From a virus (Duplodnaviria; Caudoviricetes), in the IMG/VR virus record IMGVR_UViG_3300010366_000001, positions 625 through 64,624 of that record: a stretch of DNA of 64,000 nt. One strand, given 5' to 3'. The notes below the pieces were generated by a model that saw nothing but the letters and a program-made list of their open reading frames with translations, did not search any database and had not been told where the DNA came from. The position numbers and the translations under genes were made by a program. Below, one piece after another: positions 29,401-60,735 of this stretch. Position 1 is the stretch's first letter. Each line of letters starts with the position of its first letter.

Positions 29401-31898
29401 CCATGCTGCGAGGCCAGTCGGCGCGCCTCGTTGGGATCGCCCTCGGCCGCGTTGATAAACTGCCGTAGCGTGTTCTGGTCGAGCCGTTTGCCGCCGCCAT
29501 CGGGCAGCGGCCCGTAGAGCACCGTGCGGCGCGCGTCAGTCGCCTCGGGCGTGAACAGTTGCAGCTTGCCCCGATGATAGGTGCCCTCGTCGTATTGGTG
29601 CTGCAAGGTGATGCGCTGCGAGTCGAGCAGGTGCAGCGTGTTCACGATATTGCTGCGCAACTGCTGGTCGCTCATCTTGTGGTCGAAGTCCGCGGCCGCG
29701 GCCATGCGCTCCACCTGGCCTCCGCCACTCGGAATGTAGGCCTTGGAGACTTCTTCGGAAACCTTCTTGCCGATCATGTCGAATGTCGAAGCGAGGTCGG
29801 ATCCGGTCTGCAGGCCGAGCGAAACGGCGATCTTATTGAGCACCGGTAACTGGCCGTTGGCGAGTGCGCGCCGCGCCGTATCGAGCAGCGCCACATGCTC
29901 GAGCGACGTGGAGAGCGGGCCGGTCATCTGCGACTTCGCCCCCTGCGCGAAGCTATTCTCGGTGGCCTGCATGGTCTTATATTCCTGGTCCGCCCGTGCC
30001 CAACTGAAGCTCGGGTCGGCCTTCTGGGCGGCGCGCAGGATGCGCCGGCGCGTGTCCATGTCGCGGCCGAGGATCTCCTGGAACTGGGCCGGCACCAGGT
30101 CGTGGCTGACGACCTGTTTGGCGAGTCCGTCCACCTCTTCGTCGGTAAGCTGCGCGGCCTTGAGGCGCTTCTGCTCCTGAATCCGAAGCTGCTTCTGCTC
30201 CCACGTGGCCGGGTCGGTCTGCGCTTCGACCTGCAGTTCCGGATACTGGGCCAGTTGCTCGTAAATCGGCCGGCCGGGCTGGAGCTCGATGCCTTCGCGC
30301 TGCGCGATCGCCCGCGCCCGCGCCTCGCGATCGCTAGTGAGCGTCTTCTGGAAATTGGCGCGGGCCGTGACGACCGCCCGCTCGGCAGCCGCAAGTTCGG
30401 TCTGCTTGGCGCGCTGGTTGGCGCCAATCTCCTGCGCACCGAGAGTCGCTACCTTCTCGTCGTAGGCGTTCATCCGGTCCTGCAAGGTAGCGCCGGCCTT
30501 GAGGGCCTCGACGTAGTTGGCGCGCGCCGTCTGGCGCTGCTTCTCCATGGCCTGCATGGTGCTCATGCCGGCCTCGCCCAACTGCATCCCGAAATTGGGT
30601 GCATGCGAGGCCATCAGCGCGAACCCCATGTGCATCAGGATCTGCGAAATCGAGGGGTGCAGGTTCTCTTCGGCCTGCCGCTGCAATTGCGTGATGGCGT
30701 CCTGCAGGTGGCTGAAGTCCGGACGCTCGCCCATCAGGGTCTTGATGGCGGCCTTCGACCGCGCGATCTCATCGGTGGTCGGCGCGAGACCGGCTCTCAG
30801 CTTAGCCGCGTAGTCTTCCGCGGCCTGCACCTCAGGCGACACGTAAGCGCCCAGCCCCGAACGGGCGCCCGGCGGCTGCGCTGGAGGGGCGGCTTGCGCC
30901 TCCTCCTCGGCGGCGGCCGGCGCCGGCGGGCCGGTGTAGGGCAGTGGCCGCTGCGGTCCGAGGTCAGGCATACCCGGAATAGCCTGCTGGGGCATGCCAT
31001 TGGGCCCTACGGGCGTCAGGGGCATGTCTTCCGGCGTCGTCCTGAGGAGAGCCTGCTGCGAGGCCTGCTGGCCCGCTGTAGGCCTCGCAAACGACGAGCT
31101 AGGGGCCAGGGCGCGCTGCGACGATAGCTGCCCCAGGATCTTCTTAACATAAGCCTGCGTCTCAGGGTAGGGCGGCACGCCGCCGAACCGCTGGACGGCT
31201 CCCTCGCCGGCGTTATAAGCAGCCAGCGCCTTCTCGGTGTCGCCGCCGTACTTGTCGATCAGGTCGCGCAGGTGCCGCATCCCGCCATCGATGTTCTGCC
31301 GCGGGTCGCGGGGATTAACGCCTAGATCCCGAGCCGTTCCCGGCATCAGTTGCATGGGCCCGATGGCGCCCTTGGGAGAAATGGCGCCAGCGCGAAAGCC
31401 GCTCTCCGTCCTGGCTACGGCCCGGCCGAGGCGCGGATCCATGCCGTAGCGCGCGCTGGCCGCATCCAGCAGGCCGGGGATATCGGCGTCGGTGTCGTCC
31501 GGATCATCCGGATCGTGGAGAGGCTCGCGATAGCCTCCGCCCTCCGCCATGGCCCGCGGCGGCATTCCCATATTGCCCGGAGGCATGGCGCCCGGCATGG
31601 GCGATCCCGGGGCGCCGCCTGGCATCGCTTTGGCCGGCGGCGCGGCTCCGGCCGGCGGGGGCGGGCCGGTAGGCTGGGGTGGCATCAACTGCTGGAGCGT
31701 GCCCCGCAGCGTGTCCTGCATGACGCTGCTCGTCGGCGGTTTTGCGCCATCGCCGCCGGCGCGCAGCAGTTTGCGGCGCTGGAGTTCGGCGAGCACCAGG
31801 TAGGCCGGCGCGGCGCCGGTAGGCTGCTGCACCTCCTTGGCCAGCCACTGGTCGGGGTAGGTCTTCAGGTCGTTGGCGACCGTGATGAGGTCAGGCAT
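29388..31898 (-). CDS. Internal virion protein with soluble lytic transglycosylase domain
   Basis: SLT motifs AVARTESGF, GAIGPMQLMPGTA, DPRQNIDGG, ALAAYNAG, PETQAYV. Confidence 0.88.
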   Translation of the reverse strand: MPDLITVANDLKTYPDQWLAKEVQQPTGAAPAYLVLAELQRRKLLRAGGDGAKPPTSSVMQDTLRGTLQQLMPPQPTGPPPPAGAAPPAKAMPGGAPGSPMPGAMPPGNMGMPPRAMAEGGGYREPLHDPDDPDDTDADIPGLLDAASARYGMDPRLGRAVARTESGFRAGAISPKGAIGPMQLMPGTARDLGVNPRDPRQNIDGGMRHLRDLIDKYGGDTEKALAAYNAGEGAVQRFGGVPPYPETQAYVKKILGQLSSQRALAPSSSFARPTAGQQASQQALLRTTPEDMPLTPVGPNGMPQQAIPGMPDLGPQRPLPYTGPPAPAAAEEEAQAAPPAQPPGARSGLGAYVSPEVQAAEDYAAKLRAGLAPTTDEIARSKAAIKTLMGERPDFSHLQDAITQLQRQAEENLHPSISQILMHMGFALMASHAPNFGMQLGEAGMSTMQAMEKQRQTARANYVEALKAGATLQDRMNAYDEKVATLGAQEIGANQRAKQTELAAAERAVVTARANFQKTLTSDREARARAIAQREGIELQPGRPIYEQLAQYPELQVEAQTDPATWEQKQLRIQEQKRLKAAQLTDEEVDGLAKQVVSHDLVPAQFQEILGRDMDTRRRILRAAQKADPSFSWARADQEYKTMQATENSFAQGAKSQMTGPLSTSLEHVALLDTARRALANGQLPVLNKIAVSLGLQTGSDLASTFDMIGKKVSEEVSKAYIPSGGGQVERMAAAADFDHKMSDQQLRSNIVNTLHLLDSQRITLQHQYDEGTYHRGKLQLFTPEATDARRTVLYGPLPDGGGKRLDQNTLRQFINAAEGDPNEARRLASQHGWIF

Positions 31899-34800
31899 GC
31901 GGGCCTCCCTTCAGCGAGTTTAGAGTGGCCGCACGCCAACTGTCGATGAGGGGCCCGATCTGGCCGCCCTTCGCGCGAAGCAGAGGGTTAGTGTCCGGGT
32001 CTATTTGGGGGGCGACTGGTTTGACTTTAACGGGGCCCGCTTGCCAACCATACCCACCACCTTGATAGACCGGGCGGGCTGATCCGCGGGATCGGGCCAG
32101 AGCTCGCTCCTTAACTGATTCGCTAATCGGCCGTCGCCAGAGCCGATTTGCTCCAGCATTTTCAGTTCCCGCAGCTTCAGGTCCCGCAGACTCTCGTTGT
32201 AGTTGTTTGATGAGTTGTCCATAGTTTTCCTTGTTCGCGTTCAAGACGTCGTAGTGCTCCACCATCGCATGGCCGACGGCATCGTTCTGCTCCAACGTTT
32301 TGAGCGCCTTCTCCATGTCGGCCAGGGCGTTCACCTTGCCGTTGTGAATCAGGTCATTCAAAACCTGGGGATGGCTTATTCTAGCGACCATGGCTGGGTC
32401 GTGCACGTACTCCGGCATGTATATAAAACGCATACCAGCGTACTGCCCGGGCTTCATCCCTGGTCCGCCAAACAGCGTAAAGCCGCCGATGTTATCGGTC
32501 TGAATCTGGCTAATTACATTCCATGCGTCCTCACTCGAAAGAGGCTTCTTAAAATAGACGCTCAGACCTGGACGTGCGTATACGGCATTAGTACTGTCAT
32601 CGGGGATTGTCCTGGCAATGAAGGCATCGTCCTGTTTGTGCTTCTGCGCCGCCTTGATGACCTCCTCTGTGACCTTGTTGACGGAAGCCTCGCCGGTCTC
32701 CGGCAGCGTCACCTCGAAATTGGAGGCAAAGACCGGCTTGCCGGCGTTGTCGCCGCCGGGCGCCGACCACATGCCGAGCGCGTGGCTGTTGACGATCGAT
32801 TTGACGTTGGGGTCCGCGGCCGCCACCCGGTGCGCATCCTTCATCATGTCGATGGCATTTTGCGGTACGTCGGACATCTCAGGCTCGATGCCAGCCACGA
32901 TGCGGCCCAGGCCCGACTCCTTGGCGGTCGCCGCCATGTCGCCGCCCTCGCCTATTCTGCTGGTCAGGCCGCGCTGCGTCCACATGTCCTTCTCGCGAAA
33001 CCAGAGGAAGGCCTGTAGCTCATGCGGATCCATCCCCAGTTGCGCGGCGGCCTTGTCGAAGACCTTCTGGCCGAACATGAACTGACCGGTACTGCGAATG
33101 CCCTGCGCGTCGTTGATGACGCCCCCGGCTACGCCGCCCTCGGCCGGCTGCGGGATCGCCGGTGCATCGCCGTAGAGTTGGTGCCGAATGCGCTGAAGCA
33201 TGCGCGCGGCCCAAACATCGACCGTCGCCAGGTCGCTCGAGCCCGCCATGTTTCCACTGTAGTTTTGCGTCTTGGGCGATGTCGGCTTGCCGCGGAAACG
33301 GTTGATCAGCGCGTCCATCACCTTCATGGTGTTCGCATTGAAATTCTTGTCGCCGTAGCGCAAGGCCCGCGGACCGGTGTACTTGTTGGGCTGGCCGCCG
33401 GCCTCCCGATACGCCTCGTACTGCTTGAGAACGTCGTCGTAGTCGCCCTTGGCGTTCCGCTCCAGCCCTTCGACGGCCTGCTTGAAATTCTCTGTGACCG
33501 GCGTCCGCGCGCTCGTGACGCCGAGCATGTCGGCGAACAGGTCGCCGGCCGAGCCATACATCCTGCGCAGAATGGTCCGCATGCGCGTGTACCACTGCTT
33601 CTGCTCGTTGATGCGCATGGCCGTGCGCTCATCGAGAGTGCGCACATCGGGCTCTTTGACGGAAGCCTCCTGGGCCTGCTGCTGGATGCCTCGCACCTCC
33701 TGGACGATGGCGTCCGCCATGTTTTGCGAAACCTGCTCGCCGGCCGGCGTCAAGGTGTCTGTCGTCCAGAGCTTCTGGCCGCGCACCGGGTCGTCGAAGG
33801 CGTACGGGATCTCTTTGTATTTGATTTCGTACGACGCCGGCTTCGGCTTCCCGCCCTCTCTGGTGGGCGGCCGCTCAGGCGTGAACTTGATGCCCTTCAC
33901 CTCGAGCGGCTGAAACGGGAAATCGCCGCGGGTCGGGAACTGCGCTCGCTTGTCGCGGATATCCTGCTCTGCGGCCCGTTGCAGCCGGTTCATAGCCCTC
34001 TGATTCAGATCCGGAAGGTCACGCTGCAAGGCGTCCGAGATCATCTGCCGTTCTGGTGCGTAGACCCGCGAAAGGTTCGCTAGCTGGCGCTCGCCGCGGC
34101 GCCCTTCCTCGGCCGCTTGAAACACATCGATCGGTGCGCCGGCGGGTGCGGCCGCGGGCGGTTTCGGTCCGGCCGCCTGCTCGGCCCAGAACTGCGGCAA
34201 TGCCTCCGGCGCGACGCCGGCCGCCTGATCCGCCATAGCCTTCGCCTCTTCGAAGTTCTTGACGGTAGGCTGGCTGCCCGGGAAGTCCCTCGTCATCTGG
34301 CTCAACCACTGCGGATATTCGCCGATTCCCTGCATGATGTACTGGGCGCCCTTAACGGCCTTAGCGGCGCCCCAGGTAGCCATGTCGCCGAGGTTCTCGC
34401 CGCCCGGGATGCCACTGTGGAGTTGCGAGCCGCTGAAGGCCCCGCTCTCACGCATTCGCTCGGACGCCCTGGAGGCCGCCCGGTCCGGGTCGGTAAAAAT
34501 CTGGCCCAGCCCACCGGGCTTTGCCGGTGGCTCGGTAGGGACGTCCGCGAGACCGCCCGGCTCGCGAAGTATCGTGGTTGGTTCCGGGATGGGATGCAGG
34601 GCGCCGCTGACCGCGGCCGGCAAAAGCATCCCCAAGCCGTGGCCGGTGGCCTTGGCGTACTCACCTTTATCAACGTCCTGGGCCACCTGCTGCGCACCGG
34701 CGCCAAACATCGGCACCGCACCGGCGCCGTGGTAGAACGTACCCGGAATATCGCCGCGCCTCATGGCTTCCCCGGTCTGCCCGAGTTCACCCCATACGCG

Positions 34801-36966
34801 CGACGGCTCGTTGACCAGCCCCAGACCCAGGTTCTTCACGGTATCGAGCCCGCGCTGCATCTCGCCGGGGTCCGGCACGCGACCGCTCCAGGGGGTAGCA
34901 GCGACGATATCGCCAAGCTGCTTGAGCATGCTCGAGTCGGCGAAGGACCGCCAGAGGTCTTTCGCCGAACTCGCGAGCCCGCCTCCCTCTGCCATGCGAA
35001 CCGCTCCGCCGTGCGCATACCGCTCCGCCGTGGATCCGCCATTGCTGTACAGGCCGCCCTTCGCAAACGGCTTCCAGCCGAGGCTCCCCATGGTGCCGGC
35101 GGCGCCCATCAGCCCACCCATGAGTTGTCCGAAGATCGAGCCCTGCGGCGCCTGAATAGTCGTGTTCTGCGTGCCGTTGCTCGACGTCGTGTAGGGCAAC
35201 GGCATCATGTTCTGCAATTGCGCGAGGTAGGCCAGCGCCTGCATGGGCATCGTCAGATTTTGCATCTGATTCTGGTACGCCACGTCCGCATTCTGCTGCG
35301 CCATGCCCTGCTGTGACTGGGCCGCCTGGGCCATCGCCGCCAGGCCCTGCAGGCCGGCCATATAGTTGTTTAACTGCATGCTGCCGAGGCCCTGACCAAT
35401 CTGGTTCATTTGCCCCGTCATCTGCAGGTTGAGCCCCTGCTGCTGCTGCCGCGCCTGCTGCTGCTGGATCGCCTGCTGCAATCCAAGCTGCTGGCCCTGC
35501 ATGCCGAGATTCTGCGTCTGGAGCGCGCCCTGCAGGTTGCCCTGGTACTGCATCCCGAGCCCCTGCATCTGCGCGGCCTGATTCGCGAGCGCGCCCTGGA
35601 AGCCCATCTGCTGGGCCGCCAGCCCGGACTGCAGGCCCGCCTGCTGGTTGGCAAGCTGGGCCTGCATTCCGTAGCCGGCATTGGCCAGGCCGGCCTGGAG
35701 ACCAGACTGCTGGTTGGCGAGCGATGCCTGGAGAGCTTGGCCGGCCTGGAACTCTTGAGCCTGCTGGTTGGCGAGCGCCGCCTGCAGGCCCGTCTGCTGG
35801 TTGGCGAGTTGCGCCTGCATGCCGAGTTGCGCCCCGAGGCCCTGGGTTTGGAGCAGGGCCCCGAGGTTCTGCTGGCCAACCGTCAACCCCGCTTGCTGGT
35901 TGGCGAGGTTGGCCTGCAGTCCCGTCTGCGCGCCCAGCCCTTGGGTTTGCAAGAACGAGGAGAGGTTCTGCACGTTGGCCTGCTGCTGCGCCTGCTGGTT
36001 GGCGAGCGCGGCCTGTAAGCCGGTCCCGATGTTGAATTGCTGCGCCTGCTGGGACAACGCCTGCTGCTGGTTGAATTGCTGCTGGGCCTGCGTGTAGGCG
36101 TCCTGCAGTCCCTTGGCCTGGATGTTCGCCAGGTTCAACTGCAGATCGCGCGCGCCGGTGGCCTCGGTTACCGCCTGCCGCGAACCGCCGTAGGCGCCGG
36201 CCGCGACTGCCTGCGATCGCTGCGTCTGTAGCTGCTGGTTGTAGTCCTCGACCGCTTTCTGCTTCTGAACATCCACCACCTGCTGCGCGTAGGGCGTCAT
36301 GAACGACGACGCCGTGCCCGGGTCGGTCCAGGATTGCGTGGTGGCCTGCGCTTCGGGCGCCACGTTGGCGGCCGCCTGCATCTGAAAGTCTTTCAGGTTC
36401 GGCGCCGAGACCATCTGCGCCGGGCCCATCTGATACTGCTGGAGGTTCGGCCCCGAGACCTGCATCAACCCCGTGATGGGGTTCACCATTCCGGTGGGCG
36501 CCGAGACCCGCTCCGACTGCACTGCGGTCGGCGCCGACACTTGCATCGGATTGTATTGGTAGCTCGACGCGAGACCGGAGACCGACGGCATGCCGCCGGC
36601 GAAGGGATTGTCGAAGCTCAACGCCTGCGGCCCGAACTGCTGGTTGAAACTGATCGTGTTCGGATCGACCCCCATGGCGCCGACCGTGCCCATCAGATTG
36701 CGGAAGAATTCACCCAGCCCGCTCTGGTCGGGCGCGTTGCCCATGGCGCCGGCCTGCGACCAGTAGTTGTTCGTCAACTGCGTCGGATCGGCAACCGAGG
36801 CCTGCGGCCCCATGTTGTTGACAAGGCCTTGGTCGCCGGTGACCATCCCCTGCGCCGTGCCGAGGATCTGCCGCCACATGTCCATCAGACCGGAGTCCGG
36901 CGTGTAGGTGTTGGTCTGATTCGAAGTGGTGTTCTGCTGACCTGGTGTGCTAGAGAATAGGCCCAT
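31891..36966 (-). CDS. 1691-aa multidomain ejection protein: Gln-rich pilot region plus polyvalent-type enzymatic region
   Basis: AxxAGAYGGSRQAV pilot-type motif; 11-residue Q-rich repeats; later PKTQNY / ATVDVWAAR motifs. Confidence 0.75.
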   Translation of the reverse strand: MGLFSSTPGQQNTTSNQTNTYTPDSGLMDMWRQILGTAQGMVTGDQGLVNNMGPQASVADPTQLTNNYWSQAGAMGNAPDQSGLGEFFRNLMGTVGAMGVDPNTISFNQQFGPQALSFDNPFAGGMPSVSGLASSYQYNPMQVSAPTAVQSERVSAPTGMVNPITGLMQVSGPNLQQYQMGPAQMVSAPNLKDFQMQAAANVAPEAQATTQSWTDPGTASSFMTPYAQQVVDVQKQKAVEDYNQQLQTQRSQAVAAGAYGGSRQAVTEATGARDLQLNLANIQAKGLQDAYTQAQQQFNQQQALSQQAQQFNIGTGLQAALANQQAQQQANVQNLSSFLQTQGLGAQTGLQANLANQQAGLTVGQQNLGALLQTQGLGAQLGMQAQLANQQTGLQAALANQQAQEFQAGQALQASLANQQSGLQAGLANAGYGMQAQLANQQAGLQSGLAAQQMGFQGALANQAAQMQGLGMQYQGNLQGALQTQNLGMQGQQLGLQQAIQQQQARQQQQGLNLQMTGQMNQIGQGLGSMQLNNYMAGLQGLAAMAQAAQSQQGMAQQNADVAYQNQMQNLTMPMQALAYLAQLQNMMPLPYTTSSNGTQNTTIQAPQGSIFGQLMGGLMGAAGTMGSLGWKPFAKGGLYSNGGSTAERYAHGGAVRMAEGGGLASSAKDLWRSFADSSMLKQLGDIVAATPWSGRVPDPGEMQRGLDTVKNLGLGLVNEPSRVWGELGQTGEAMRRGDIPGTFYHGAGAVPMFGAGAQQVAQDVDKGEYAKATGHGLGMLLPAAVSGALHPIPEPTTILREPGGLADVPTEPPAKPGGLGQIFTDPDRAASRASERMRESGAFSGSQLHSGIPGGENLGDMATWGAAKAVKGAQYIMQGIGEYPQWLSQMTRDFPGSQPTVKNFEEAKAMADQAAGVAPEALPQFWAEQAAGPKPPAAAPAGAPIDVFQAAEEGRRGERQLANLSRVYAPERQMISDALQRDLPDLNQRAMNRLQRAAEQDIRDKRAQFPTRGDFPFQPLEVKGIKFTPERPPTREGGKPKPASYEIKYKEIPYAFDDPVRGQKLWTTDTLTPAGEQVSQNMADAIVQEVRGIQQQAQEASVKEPDVRTLDERTAMRINEQKQWYTRMRTILRRMYGSAGDLFADMLGVTSARTPVTENFKQAVEGLERNAKGDYDDVLKQYEAYREAGGQPNKYTGPRALRYGDKNFNANTMKVMDALINRFRGKPTSPKTQNYSGNMAGSSDLATVDVWAARMLQRIRHQLYGDAPAIPQPAEGGVAGGVINDAQGIRSTGQFMFGQKVFDKAAAQLGMDPHELQAFLWFREKDMWTQRGLTSRIGEGGDMAATAKESGLGRIVAGIEPEMSDVPQNAIDMMKDAHRVAAADPNVKSIVNSHALGMWSAPGGDNAGKPVFASNFEVTLPETGEASVNKVTEEVIKAAQKHKQDDAFIARTIPDDSTNAVYARPGLSVYFKKPLSSEDAWNVISQIQTDNIGGFTLFGGPGMKPGQYAGMRFIYMPEYVHDPAMVARISHPQVLNDLIHNGKVNALADMEKALKTLEQNDAVGHAMVEHYDVLNANKENYGQLIKQLQRESAGPEAAGTENAGANRLWRRPISESVKERALARSRGSARPVYQGGGYGWQAGPVKVKPVAPQIDPDTNPLLRAKGGQIGPLIDSWRAATLNSLKGGPHA

Positions 36967-38135: not shown

Positions 38136-38369
38136 ATGGGGATAGACGCTACCGACAAGCTGGTGCTGGAAAGGATCGACACGGCCTTTGAGCATGTCCC
38201 GGTACCGGCCGAGAAGCAGGACCGATACCAGAAGCTGCACGAGGCCGCCAGGGAGATGGCGCGCGGGATCGTAGACCTCTGCCAGGACTCGATGGAACGC
38301 TCGAGCGCCCTGCAGGCCCTCGAGCAGTCGATTCTGTGGACGGACGCTGCGCTGCGCCGCGCTGCCTAG
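38136..38369 (+). CDS. Acb2/Tad1-like helical hairpin protein (candidate signal sponge)
   Basis: F.H......QDRYQKLHEAAREMARGIVDLCQDSMERSSALQALEQSILWTDAAL fits the family pattern as recalled. Confidence 0.6.
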   Translation: MGIDATDKLVLERIDTAFEHVPVPAEKQDRYQKLHEAAREMARGIVDLCQDSMERSSALQALEQSILWTDAALRRAA

Positions 38370-39377
38370 AGCGGATCCACTCCGGCCCGCCGCAGCCGGC
38401 ACACCACGCCCCAGATATCCTCCGCGGAGGCGGCCGCTTCGGCGGCGGCTTTGATATCGGACACATCGATCTTGAATTGTGCCCAGTACGGCGTGCACCA
38501 ACCGGCCAGGTAGTGACCGATCAGGCCGACGTCGGCCGCGACGAGCGGCTCGTATAGAAGCAGGCGCGAGACGGCGAAGGCCAGCGGCAGGTAGTGCTGG
38601 TGCTGCCAGTAGACTGGCGTCGCCGGCCGCACGGGGCGCGCCGCGGTCATTGAATCGTCTCCTCCTGCTTAGCATACTCACCCCGATCGACCCGCTTCTG
38701 CAGGTCGGCGAGGAGGTTCTTCAGGTTCAGTTCAAAGGAGGAATTGTGGCCCAGCACCCAGCACAGCATGTCGAGTGATGCGGACAGCAAAGGAAAAGCG
38801 GGATGGCGAGAGAGAGGCGGGCACTCGGCCAGGCTTTCCAGGGAATCGTGCGCCGACTGGATCTCGTCGCGGGTGCGCATGGTGGCCCCCCGCATCTCCC
38901 TGATCTCATCGGCGAGCACCTTGAGGGCAACGTATGTGCCGGGCCACTCCTCCTCGTAGAGTTCCTTCCAGATGCCGATCAGCGTCCGCCTCGCCAGCGC
39001 GTCGAGCGGCTCGGCTTGAAATAGCTTCTCCATCGTCGGCCTCCTTTTCTGGCGGGGAGCCGGCCCGGGGCGGACCTCCCCCGGTCTTACCGGGCCGGCT
39101 TTTTATTTCCCCGTGCTCGTCATATCCCTCGCCGCTGTAGATCCGCCGTGTGCATCACAAGGTCGTGGCGCAGGCGGCGCCAGTACTCGATCTCATCGAC
39201 CGGCACGGGCTTGCCTTCAACGAGGTCGGTGAAGGCCCCCATGATGGCGACGGCGCCGGCGTAAAACGTCTGGCGGTGCTCTTCGATTTGATCCGGCTTA
39301 ACGACCTTCGGCAGGCACTCCGCGAGCCAGCTTTTCCAGAGCTCGCGGACGGTCGGACGTTGAGCCGGACGGATCAC
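38366..39377 (-). CDS. Three hypotheticals downstream of the integrase: 39377-39120, 39033-38647, 38650-38366
   Basis: GTG at 39377 overlaps the integrase TGA; AGGAGG RBS; EHRQTFYAGA motif. Confidence 0.6.
39058..39108 (+). terminator. Stem-loop with T tract
   Basis: AGCCGGCCCGG / CCGGGCCGGCT 11-bp stem, inner GGTC/GACC-type hairpin on the minus strand, followed by TTTTATTT. Confidence 0.55.
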
Positions 39378-41035
39378 GCGGCACGCTCCTCCTGGTTCCG
39401 GCGCCGCGTGGCCCAAGACTTGAGTGCACGGGCCGTCCACTCCGCCTGGGTACGCCCGACGTGGACCGGGCAACTCATTTCAAAGGGGATAGGCAGCCGA
39501 GAAATGTACTGGCTGTCAATACTGCCAGTACGTTTCTGCGCTGATGATACCGGCACCGGAACCTTGCCCGAAATGACCGCCGTTCCACCCTTGTAGACGA
39601 CTTTCAGGTCCATCAGCGCCTCGAGGATCGGCCGCCGCTCGGCGTAGGTTTCCGGCTTCTCGCTGGTTTGGATCTCGCGCAGCGCGGCTTCTACCGCCTG
39701 CTTCGATGGAAGCGTCATCACCTTGCCGGCGGCCTTCAGTTCCCGCTCGATCTCGGCAATGCGGTCCTGCAGTCTCTTCTGCTCGAGCTTGCCTTCGGCG
39801 ACTGAGTACATGTGAGCCCGCGTCATCTCAACCACGCGGCGCTGGTCTTCCGCCAGGCGCCTGGCCTCCTTCTCGAGCTTCTCTATACCCTTGGCGCCGG
39901 GAAGGGTCAGCGAGTCGTAATATTTTCGCCCCACCTTGAGCAGGCGATCGGCATCCGTCAGGATCGGCCAGAGGCATTCAAATACCGCGTCGTCGAACGA
40001 CTCCATCTGTACGCTCGGCTCTGCGCAAATGTACCTCTTCGGCGGAAAATTGGTCGTATACCCGCAGCGATAGAACCGGCCGCCGCCGCCCGATTTCACC
40101 CCGCGATATCGATGGTCGCAGTGCGCGCACCAAAGAAAATTGCGCAGCAGGTAGGTGTCGCTCGGCCTTCCGATCCACTGGCGGTCGCCGTTCACCTCCT
40201 GGCACTTGTTCCAGAGATCGTCATCGATCCACTTCGGGCATGGGATGACCTCACCGGTCTTGCTGATGAAGCGGCCGTTGTAAACCGTATGCTCGACCAT
40301 CTGAATGAGCGTCTGCCGGCTCCACTTCCCGCCCCGCTCCGACGGGATGCCTTCCAGGTTCAGGGCGGCCGCGATCTTGTAAAACGGCGTGGGTAGAGAC
40401 CGCTCCAAAAAGACGCGGCTCACGACCTCCAGCTTGAACGGATCGCCGAGCTCGAAAAACTGGCCGCACTTTTCGGGCTCGATCTCGCGCACCGGATGGG
40501 TGGCGCAGGTGTCCCGATTCCAGGGGTGCTTGGGGATGTACCGGTAGCCGTATGGCGGCTTGGCTTCCACGATGCGGCCCTCGGCAAACTTCTCCGCCTT
40601 ACCGTCCATCGAACGCTGGCGGATCTTGCGCCACTCTGAGCCGGCGTGCGAAAACGCCGCGGAACACTTCTCGTAGCCTTCGTCGTCGGCCGGATCGACG
40701 TAGCCTTCGCGAACCACCCACATGGCCTTGCCCGTCTCTACAAAGTCGTCGAGCATGATCCATGGCTTGTACCGCTTACCCGGCCGAAACAGACGATCGA
40801 GAGACGAGAGGCCGATGCCATCGATCTCCGGCAGCTTTAAGCTCTCGAGCACTTCCCGCACCTGCTTGTCGTCGAGCGTTGCCGTGCCGCTGACGCCCTG
40901 AAGCTCAAGAATTCGCACAATGTTGATGCCCGGAAATTTCTTCCGCAGCCGCTCCATGTCCGTCCGCTGCCGGGCTACGTCCTGGCGGTCGCCGCTCACC
41001 CGAATCAGAAATATGATGTTCGGATTCTGCTTCAT
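39374..41035 (-). CDS. Large serine recombinase (integrase)
   Basis: LIRVS catalytic Ser; GVSG; SSLDRLFR; PPYGY; Zn ribbon CAHC..YRC..IC; coiled coil. Confidence 0.92.
   Translation of the reverse strand: MKQNPNIIFLIRVSGDRQDVARQRTDMERLRKKFPGINIVRILELQGVSGTATLDDKQVREVLESLKLPEIDGIGLSSLDRLFRPGKRYKPWIMLDDFVETGKAMWVVREGYVDPADDEGYEKCSAAFSHAGSEWRKIRQRSMDGKAEKFAEGRIVEAKPPYGYRYIPKHPWNRDTCATHPVREIEPEKCGQFFELGDPFKLEVVSRVFLERSLPTPFYKIAAALNLEGIPSERGGKWSRQTLIQMVEHTVYNGRFISKTGEVIPCPKWIDDDLWNKCQEVNGDRQWIGRPSDTYLLRNFLWCAHCDHRYRGVKSGGGGRFYRCGYTTNFPPKRYICAEPSVQMESFDDAVFECLWPILTDADRLLKVGRKYYDSLTLPGAKGIEKLEKEARRLAEDQRRVVEMTRAHMYSVAEGKLEQKRLQDRIAEIERELKAAGKVMTLPSKQAVEAALREIQTSEKPETYAERRPILEALMDLKVVYKGGTAVISGKVPVPVSSAQKRTGSIDSQYISRLPIPFEMSCPVHVGRTQAEWTARALKSWATRRRNQEERAA
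39494..39543. other. Candidate attP of the serine integrase
   Basis: CAGCcgAGAAAtGTACTGGC-tgtcAAtact-GCCAGTACgTTTCTgcGCTG; 17/20 symmetric positions; centre at 39518-39519. Confidence 0.65.
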
Positions 41036-41397
41036 CACGCGCACCTCTTTTCCGCGCGGTTGCGCTGCGTACGCCCTTCAGAATCGCGGCGAACAGGTTT
41101 ACGGCCGCTTGGTCGTTCTGCACCTCCTCGAGGCGCGCGCTGACCTTGACCGGTGGCTTTTGGCGCCGGCTCATTGGCGATCGCCTCGAGTTGATCGATG
41201 CGCGCCCTGAGTGTCGCCGTAGACCGGCTGACCAGCATGCGCAACGCCTCGTCGGCGTCCGCGGTGAGCGAGTTCTCCTGGATTACCTTGCCGTTTGCGT
41301 CGCGGTAGACCAGCCACCATACGGCGCCGCGGAACTGAATGCTTCCGCTCCCGTACGGCAGGCTGCGCTTCTGCCGGATCGCTTGTTGTCTTGTCAT
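41035..41397 (-). CDS. Stand-alone arm-type DNA-binding domain protein
   Basis: YGSGSIQFRGAVWWLVYRDANGKVIQENSLTADADEALRML resembles the three-stranded N-domain of phage tyrosine integrases. Confidence 0.6.
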   Translation of the reverse strand: MTRQQAIRQKRSLPYGSGSIQFRGAVWWLVYRDANGKVIQENSLTADADEALRMLVSRSTATLRARIDQLEAIANEPAPKATGQGQRAPRGGAERPSGRKPVRRDSEGRTQRNRAEKRCA

Positions 41398-59043: not shown

Positions 59044-60735
59044 CTAGAAGACGCCGCTGAAGCTGGTCCCCCTCTTGGCAATGCCGCAGCCGCGGACCTT
59101 GCCGCCATGCGCCATCTTTTTCGTGCCCTTCGTATTGGGGAAGCCCTTGCGAACCTTGGCCGCACCGCCGGCCGCCATCTTCTCGCAGGAGCCGCCCTTG
59201 TTTTTGCGGAGACCGAACTTCCCGCCCTTCTTCATCGGCGGAGGCGCCGCCGCAGCCGCCGGACCCGGCCCGGGACTCGGCGCGGTCCCCTCGCTATCCT
59301 CGTAGTCGTAAGGGCTTGGCGTTGAGGTCGGCTTTTTCAGGGCAACGGCGATAGAGACCTTCGGCTTGCCCGCCGGCTTTTTCACCAGAACCTTGCCGCC
59401 CTTCTTCTTCGCGACCGGCTCTTCGGCCTTGTCCTCACCGCCCCACTGACGGTCGGCCACCTTGCCGCCCTTGCGGTACGGCCGCTGCCCCTGCAACGAT
59501 CTCTGCAGAGCGCCGAGGCCGGCCGTCGGGCCCATGGGAGCCGGCTGCGCGACCGCCGGCGGCATTACTGGCGCGCCAGGCGGAGGAGGCACGGCCGCGC
59601 CCGGAGGCGGCGCGCTTACCAAACCCTGCAAGCCCGACGGTGGACCACCCGGGGGCGGAGGGCCGCCAGGGGCCGCACCGAAGAATGAACCGCCGCCGGG
59701 AGGCGGACCGCCCGGAGGCGGACCGCCCGCTAAAGCACCGAGGGCCGCGCCCGGCGGAGGACCACCAGGAGCCGCACCAAAGAATGAACCGCCGCCGGGA
59801 GGTGGACCGCCCTGTTGTAAAGCGCCGAGCGCCGCGGCCGGAGGCGGACCGCCGGGGGGAGGCCCACCCGGAGGCGGACCGCCGATGCCCAGGCCCTGCA
59901 TTGCCGACGCGAGCCCTGGAACACTCGGAGGCGCCGCACCGAGCGACGCGCCGCCGGGAGGCGGAGGCGGAGGGCCTGGCAGCGATATGGGGCTGGCCCC
60001 ACCGCCCTGCAAGGCGCCCTGCATCATGTTGGCGAAGTTGGCCGCGCCGCCCGGGGTCATGCCAGGAGCGCCCTGGAATGACGAGCCGGCAGGCGGAGGC
60101 GGAGCCGACATACCTGGATCGATCGGCATCAGCGAGCCCCCTTGCGGTGCGCCGGACAAGGACCGTTCTGATGGCCCGCCGACGGAAGAACCAGAACCGC
60201 CCCCACTAGACGGGGCGGCTGAACCTAAACGATTACGCATTGAGTTTCCTCCCTCTCGAATCGACCCGCCCCGCGCCGCCTTCGTCGCCGTCGTGGTGTC
60301 GGTCGTCGTACTCTCATCCATGGGCTTGTGCTTGTTTTTCAGCAACGTCGCCGCCAGCAAGCCCATCCCCGCGGCGCCCAGCGGCCCCCATAGGCTCGTG
60401 CCAGAACCAAAAACCGCCCCTGCTCCCAACCCCACGAGAGCTCGCTGCCAGGGCTTCATGGTGTCCCACGGCTTGGGCTTCTCCACCTTCGGCTTGGCCG
60501 GAGGCGCCACCTGGGAAGAACTGCCCGGCGTAGAACTGCCCGGTGCGGGCGTGTCGCCGGCGTCGTCGCCGACCAGACCTGGAGCAGTGCTGATCCGCTT
60601 TACGGTCGGGTCGTCGGGCGTGAAGCCGGCCGGCTCAGAGGTCGGCGACGGCGATGCCGGGTTGAACGGCCCGGCGTCGTCGCCGTCCGATTCGCCGCCA
60701 CTCTGAAAGCGCCGGCGCGGTGTTAGCTGGCTCAT
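59044..60735 (-). CDS. Gly/Pro-rich disordered virion-module protein with basic C-terminus
   Basis: GGPPPGG repeats; C-terminal KKMAHGGKVRGCGIAKRG. Confidence 0.6.
   Translation of the reverse strand: MSQLTPRRRFQSGGESDGDDAGPFNPASPSPTSEPAGFTPDDPTVKRISTAPGLVGDDAGDTPAPGSSTPGSSSQVAPPAKPKVEKPKPWDTMKPWQRALVGLGAGAVFGSGTSLWGPLGAAGMGLLAATLLKNKHKPMDESTTTDTTTATKAARGGSIREGGNSMRNRLGSAAPSSGGGSGSSVGGPSERSLSGAPQGGSLMPIDPGMSAPPPPAGSSFQGAPGMTPGGAANFANMMQGALQGGGASPISLPGPPPPPPGGASLGAAPPSVPGLASAMQGLGIGGPPPGGPPPGGPPPAAALGALQQGGPPPGGGSFFGAAPGGPPPGAALGALAGGPPPGGPPPGGGSFFGAAPGGPPPPGGPPSGLQGLVSAPPPGAAVPPPPGAPVMPPAVAQPAPMGPTAGLGALQRSLQGQRPYRKGGKVADRQWGGEDKAEEPVAKKKGGKVLVKKPAGKPKVSIAVALKKPTSTPSPYDYEDSEGTAPSPGPGPAAAAAPPPMKKGGKFGLRKNKGGSCEKMAAGGAAKVRKGFPNTKGTKKMAHGGKVRGCGIAKRGTSFSGVF

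Follow-up and report, generated by a model that had tools for sequence, protein, structure and literature searches.

The closest described relatives of the enzyme considered here are the large serine integrases of phages such as A118/LI, Bxb1, phiC31, SPbeta (SprA), and TP901-1. In the textbook arrangement, the phage attachment site (attP) of a serine integrase sits in noncoding DNA beside the integrase gene (int). The window, a 64,000-nucleotide stretch of a tailed-phage genome from IMG/VR, encodes an integrase of this class, and a 50-bp imperfect dyad inside its coding sequence is very probably the phage's own attP, with crossover at positions 39518-19. The window integrase has the resolvase, recombinase, and zinc-ribbon domains and the coiled coil in common with the known enzymes. 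Like theirs, the predicted attP is an imperfect dyad of about 50 bp around a central dinucleotide and, as in those systems, the left and right prophage junctions (attL and attR) of its relatives lack the dyad. The location of the site sets this locus apart from the textbook layout. Here attP is part of the coding sequence, and the distance from it to the stop codon is 20 codons in the family and 47 in the window phage. Compared with the A118 structure, this integrase family also has an extra C-terminal tail.

The nearest precedents for an attachment site inside int are tyrosine recombinases. In the Myxococcus phage Mx8 (IntP/IntX), attP lies within int and integration creates a new 3′ end of the gene, which modifies the enzyme rather than destroying it (PMC6070905). 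The two arrangements have in common an attP within the int coding sequence (the window dyad spans codons 501-517 of 556) and an integration event that alters the gene. They differ in chemistry, site architecture, host, and target, the Mx8 enzyme being a tyrosine and the window enzyme a serine recombinase. A looser likeness is to the archaeal SSV-type "suicidal" tyrosine integrases, which carry the recombination site inside their own gene and are considered exclusive to archaea in a 2021 review (PMC8371274). The common feature is a compact int-att module. The SSV type splits the gene into two inactive halves, whereas here a bacterial serine enzyme would exchange a short tail that follows all known domains. 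By analogy, the arrangement appears to work like the Mx8 and SSV systems without membership in either group, since the enzyme is a serine and not a tyrosine recombinase. In the mycobacteriophages BPs and Brujita, which use a tyrosine integrase, attP was reported by Broussard et al. in 2013 to lie inside the repressor gene, where integration removes a demonstrated C-terminal protease tag. This integration-dependent immunity parallels the present locus in having an attP inside a coding sequence and losing a C-terminal segment on integration. The match goes no further, because the interrupted gene here is the integrase rather than a repressor and its terminal residues are largely explained by the start signals of the next gene. 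The literature searched, the coverage of which is incomplete, yielded no published serine integrase that carries attP within its own coding sequence.

The IMG/VR record, a soil phage, is 64,624 bp long, has direct terminal repeats, and is rated complete; the window represents nearly all of it and has a GC content of ~64%. In a complete genome of a phage in its free form, bounded by terminal repeats, an intact int and an intact attP are to be expected. The int gene (39374..41044, minus strand) was identified by its open reading frame (ORF) and translation, Pfam domains, and profile matches, and encodes the uninterrupted free-phage form of a 556-residue integrase (P0001). Pfam domains Resolvase (PF00239, the catalytic domain, E = 1.2e-10), Recombinase (PF07508), and Zn_ribbon_recom (PF13408) all score above their cut-offs. 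The R-V-S motif containing the catalytic serine is invariant across the integrase alignments, as are other catalytic-domain residues. The integrase family profile matches the solved A118, SPbeta, and other serine integrases, with the A118 chain covered from residue 3 to 318. The AlphaFold model of P0001 has a mean predicted local distance difference test (pLDDT) score of 80, and its long paired helices at residues 384-439 correspond to the coiled coil. Domain content and profile matches assign P0001 to the large serine recombinases. Its closest proteins are 33-44% identical, and the window phage adds a further member to a so far undescribed integrase family.

A repeat search and a dyad scan both located the predicted attP at 39494..39543, inside the int coding sequence and at the codon where nine of ten free-form homologs also have theirs. 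This agrees with an earlier, sequence-only reading of the window, which had proposed a dyad at these positions with AA at its center. In the repeat search, the inverted arms (39494-39516 and 39521-39543) are 23 nt each and complementary at 19/23 positions (83%), with a 4-nt spacer. The dyad scan used 22-nt arms around a central dinucleotide across the whole 64-kb window, and the site centered at 39518-19 had the top score (17/22). A runner-up at 59994-59995 scored 16/22 around a TG center. The predicted crossover dinucleotide (39518..39519) is AA on the plus strand and TT in int, where it forms positions 2-3 of the Ile509 codon, and it coincides with the breakpoint seen in relatives. The dyad encodes P0001 residues 501-517, the same peptide quoted in the sequence-only reading, and 47 residues follow its center. 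The placement of the dyad just after the coiled coil was inaccurate; the site lies ~60 residues beyond the 384-439 helices and after the last β-hairpin (residues 478-495). Residues 501-515, which are encoded by the inner part of the dyad, have a modeled pLDDT below 50. The model suggests that the attP-encoded peptide is a disordered linker, which would allow one stretch to serve both as DNA site and as reading frame.

The significance of the dyad comes from its conservation in relatives. The DNA of ten loci (4-13 kb each) encoding integrases with the conserved tail was used for the comparison of free-form homologs. In nine of these, the best dyad of the whole locus (16-19/22) is centered on positions 2-3 of one and the same codon, which precedes the stop by exactly 20 codons. 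Eight homologs have TT at the center and one has AA. The tenth locus (L056) has a local peak of 12/22 at the same codon over a background of 2-8. The ten dyad sites were aligned (alignment A2) and compared with two controls, 500 shuffles and a slid partner. Complementary cells account for 75% of the alignment versus 58% in the shuffled and ~40% in the slid controls, changes occur on both sides in 20/26 pairs, and none of the 500 shuffles reaches any of the five covariation measures. G-U combinations are nearly absent from the alignment, which points to DNA symmetry for protein binding rather than to an RNA hairpin. At the window dyad no terminator-like sequence was predicted, and the interpretation of the dyad as an RNA hairpin or terminator was rejected on these two grounds. 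The arm sequences vary between loci yet remain complementary, with the outer arms being the most conserved. Read in frame, the outer arms encode mirrored peptide motifs, one lysine-rich and the other T/S-S-F, which indicates that the protein sequence in this region is shaped by the DNA site. The window dyad carries every invariant column of the alignment, and its score of 17/22 is within the family range of 16-19. A 57,232-bp IMG/VR contig (L011/L012) has a dyad score of 18/22 and an integrase gene divided between both contig ends, consistent with a circularly permuted assembly.

Relatives with aberrant integrase tails show where recombination occurred. Their genes lack the dyad and depart from the canonical sequence right behind the homologous TT. 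The recombinant junctions found are of five kinds, all of which break exactly at the dyad TT. The integrases of L002 and L003, from two samples, continue into the antisense N-terminus of an ADOP permease gene (NCBIfam perm_prefix_1, 1.5e-14; positions 1-35 of 803 in the ADOP model), which is cut within its first membrane helix. The integrase of L045, a locus in a Bryobacterales metagenome-assembled genome (MAG), likewise continues into an antisense ADOP N-terminus. An ORF upstream of this ADOP gene reads as a putative PadR-type regulator from its sequence alone. In L044, the integrase continues into the antisense strand of a transposase-like gene, and homologous tails group P0004 and P0003 with this junction; the tails of P0004, P0003, and P0016 were judged from protein sequence alone. 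In L007 the integrase frame stays open into a PIN-domain gene, from which the first ~23 profile positions are missing. The PIN gene is followed by an ORF resembling a family-2 glycosyltransferase (by motifs only). The L007 integrase and P0004 match at 94% identity across 515 residues; past the TT codon they are unrelated. The host-derived tails have ~50 to 150 residues of arbitrary content.

The ADOP motif in the first membrane helix is targeted by three integrases (loci L002, L045, and L048) that are 28-39% identical to each other. These junction sequences point to the ADOP permease genes of Acidobacteriota as a recurrent integration target of the integrase family. Integrases that are 94% (P0004/L007) and 80% (P0004/P0005) identical occupy different host genes, encoding PIN and transposase-like proteins. 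The use of different host genes by such similar integrases hints at relaxed or secondary target choice. The host half-sites at L007:7590-7640 and L044:2010-2060 have T-T-n-T-n-C-A-G-G-A-A in common, 8-18 nt from the center. The scan of genome contigs gave three loci only. The integrase of L004 (contig C3 of a Bryobacterales MAG) was set aside since it lacks a canonical tail.

Both junctions of a single element are present in G280, a complete Acidobacteriota genome (8.76 Mb, one contig) that carries 67 or more full-length ADOP permease genes. A family integrase reads into an antisense ADOP N-terminus, and the rest of that ADOP gene lies 13,346 bp upstream, joined to the last 20 codons of the canonical integrase tail. 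These junctions delimit an integrated element of 13,346 bp (C1:4290802-4304148; L052:6802 to L053:148), and they have a 9-bp core in common. Swapping the halves at the TT gives a reconstructed attP with 17/24 symmetric positions and a reconstructed bacterial attachment site (attB) with 11/24, compared with 8-9 for the actual junctions. The swap restores an integrase ending in the family tail plus an uninterrupted ADOP reading frame. Because the two junctions together rebuild attP, attB, the canonical tail, and the ADOP frame, they place the attP of this integrase family, by sequence, inside int and show that integration replaces the tail. Given the at least 67 ADOP genes and the shared target motif, a genome may offer many alternative landing sites. 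The G280 element encodes a large terminase, a portal of the lambda type, a protease-capsid fusion, and a protein with a TIR domain, and one of its products weakly matches a primase zinc ribbon; no tail genes were seen among its ORFs that were scanned. Its gene content suggests a capsid-forming satellite or a reduced prophage.

The window dyad is presumably used like the dyads of its relatives. An integrase dimer would bind the two arms, attP would pair with the host attB, and strands would be exchanged at the central TT/AA (39518-19). Because the crossover dinucleotide forms positions 2-3 of codon 509, the prophage-form integrase would keep residues 1-509 and then read into host DNA. The 47-residue tail, with its family-conserved β-strand motif, would be left at the opposite prophage end. 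The translationally coupled gene at 39120-39377, the genes at 38647-39033 and 38366-38650, and all genes behind them on the strand would go to the far prophage end. The relocated genes would be cut off from upstream transcription, and the first of them also from coupled translation. The proposal of an attP inside int, with integration rewriting the C-terminus and separating the downstream genes, had come from the sequence-only reading and is supported by the covarying dyads and junctions of the relatives: the junctions map to the dyad, and homologs that keep the tail have it together with the dyad. The targets of the relatives suggest that the host of the window phage is a member of the Acidobacteriota.

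Most homologs end in a conserved tail that opens with a lysine-rich motif, runs through a variable segment to I-P-F, and closes with a short basic end. In P0001, the family-conserved part that integration would remove is residues 510-522, ending in I-P-F (39479..39517, minus strand; alignments A1 and A3). Across proteins that are 33-44% identical to P0001, I-P-F shows little or no variation, which argues for a protein-level role of the tail. The P0001 model places I-P-F in a β-strand (residues 519-526) after the 478-495 hairpin. The A118 integrase aligns to about the hairpin only and has no counterpart of the tail, which is therefore a family addition. The alignment of P0001 with P0009 ends at residue 508, in line with a crossover at codon 509. 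The remainder of the window tail, residues 523-556 (39377..39478, minus strand), is a phage-private extension with no counterpart in any homolog aligned. Read in the int frame, it has a GC content at third codon positions (GC3) of 0.83, in support of coding, and residues 533-555 are modeled as a helix. Of the 47 residues, which the sequence-only reading had set outside the usual large serine recombinase fold, the first 13 are homologous to the family tail, and only the last ~34 are private.

A Shine-Dalgarno-like AGGAGGAG for the next gene (39386..39393, minus strand) lies inside the last int codons, and the layout is similar in homologs. At the int end of the relatives, AAGAGG or AAGGAG is followed by an overlapping ATGA or GTGA. 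In the window the next gene starts on the integrase stop through a GTGA overlap at 39377-39374, as had been noted from the sequence. The two terminal alanines had been taken as a hint of a degradation tag. This suggestion is weakened, since the terminal residues coincide with the ribosome-binding motif AGGAGGAG and with the GTG at which the next gene begins, so that neither the basic end nor the last Ala can count as evidence for a tag. L056 has no gene overlapping the int stop, yet it keeps the conserved tail end.

Several results weigh against the window dyad being a functional attP. In the source run, a Logan contig spans 37500-39936 without any joint or listed loose end at 39518-19, although rare integrated forms would be invisible there. 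The search covered Logan contigs of two soil runs, the second of which contributed only scraps. An exact search for either arm in IMG/VR contigs returned 0 matches outside the phage's own record. The ADOP motif with the window's 10-nt core was present in 0/401 Acidobacteriota genomes, a pattern that is probably too specific. The integrase closest to P0001 is just 44% identical, and the window tail has diverged from the family consensus after I-P-F. In addition, 12% of 200 Markov-simulated windows reach ≥17/22 somewhere, so chance could account for the dyad taken alone, and on its own the dyad is weak evidence. The expectation that bacterial genomes would contain junctions at the dyad center was borne out for the relatives, which break at TT; none was found for the window phage.

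These points bear on two alternatives to an attP at this position. If the dyad were a decaying relic or a chance palindrome through which the window phage no longer integrates, the 12% chance level, the divergence of the tail after I-P-F-E, and the large, lytic-looking set of structural genes in the window would be accounted for. Against this stand the retention of all family-invariant alignment columns with a score inside the family range and an intact integrase ORF with three domains and the catalytic-serine motif, and this explanation is very improbable. The dyad could instead be an operator for another protein, or an RNA hairpin, controlling int or the next gene, with the real attP elsewhere in the phage. 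Palindromes also function as operators, the dyad is 140 nt ahead of a translationally coupled gene, and no junction of the window phage was seen in the contig or arm searches. Such a control element would not explain why the recombinant junctions of relatives break exactly at the dyad center; complementarity is kept by Watson-Crick changes with G-U nearly absent, and the rest of the window has no dyad of equal score. A regulatory role in place of attachment is likewise very improbable, and assignment of 39494-39543 as the attP of the window phage is strongly favored.

Whether an attP in this position has a function beyond integration is a separate matter. The tail swap and operon cut may be neutral by-products, such that the prophage enzyme behaves like the free form and there is no switch, a view that is plausible and close to an even call. 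It fits with host-derived tails that are arbitrary in length and content, downstream genes that are not conserved among relatives, and an A118 integrase that does without a tail. Much of the conservation of the terminal K-R/E-R-V-A also coincides with the ribosome-binding motif and the start of the next gene. Neutrality is harder to reconcile with an I-P-F that is nearly invariant at 33-44% identity and modeled as a β-strand, with the retention of the tail in L056 in the absence of a stop-overlapping gene, and with the analogous change in Mx8, which alters integrase behavior (PMC6070905). Alternatively, the intragenic attP may be a built-in sensor of integration state, in which the free and prophage isoforms differ and the coupled genes are switched off. 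This idea is tentative and rather doubtful. If it is true, the free-form integrase with the β-strand tail would be an integration-proficient or short-lived isoform, and the host-tailed prophage enzyme would be altered in activity, directionality, or stability, as with Mx8 IntP/IntX. The ADOP motif, with at least 67 copies in one host genome, would then give dozens of landing sites per cell. A sensor of this type would be a testable route for a prophage to tell the free from the integrated state without a repressor.

An attP inside int, the favored assignment, would extend the integrase that rewrites its own gene, previously documented for tyrosine enzymes, to bacterial serine enzymes. Serine integrases are workhorses of unidirectional genome engineering, and locating their attachment sites is the usual bottleneck. 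With attP at a fixed codon, the integrase and its site would form one compact module, and attP could be read directly from the gene. The relatives of the window phage insert in protein-coding genes (ADOP permease, transposase, and PIN). Their junctions point to Acidobacteriota, soil bacteria with few known phages, as hosts and mark their ADOP permease genes, which are present in many copies, as integration targets for phages.

The genes flanking int differ in their conservation. The first downstream gene (39120..39377, minus strand) encodes 85 residues of no known family, and its GTG start overlaps the int stop. It is followed by two small genes co-directional with int (38647-39033 and 38366-38650, minus strand; GC3 0.79-0.85). 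In the relatives, int also lies within a long co-directional gene string, with the next gene overlapping its stop. The downstream genes were considered as a conserved part of the device, and this was rejected because they are not conserved among relatives. The upstream gene, P0029 (41035..41397, minus strand), is conserved. It encodes 120 residues with no Pfam family above cut-off, and its end overlaps the int start. Homologs of ~120 residues are found directly upstream of int in L008, L009, L010, L027, and the G280 element, and also in L045, and in most relatives the P0029-type gene ends on the int start. The N-terminus of P0029 (G-x-x-W-W-x-x-Y-R-D-x-x-G-K) resembles the arm-type DNA-binding domains of tyrosine integrases. 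P0029 is a candidate accessory or directionality factor.

Further behind int on the same strand are structural genes, including those for an internal virion protein, the large terminase, and a tail fiber. A 1691-residue ORF (31891-36966, minus strand) has DUF7178 as its sole match and adjoins the gene of an 836-residue protein, whose transglycosylase domain is characteristic of internal virion or ejection proteins. Near this ORF are the genes for the large terminase, a tail fiber, and the portal, and the integrase is thus close to the structural modules.

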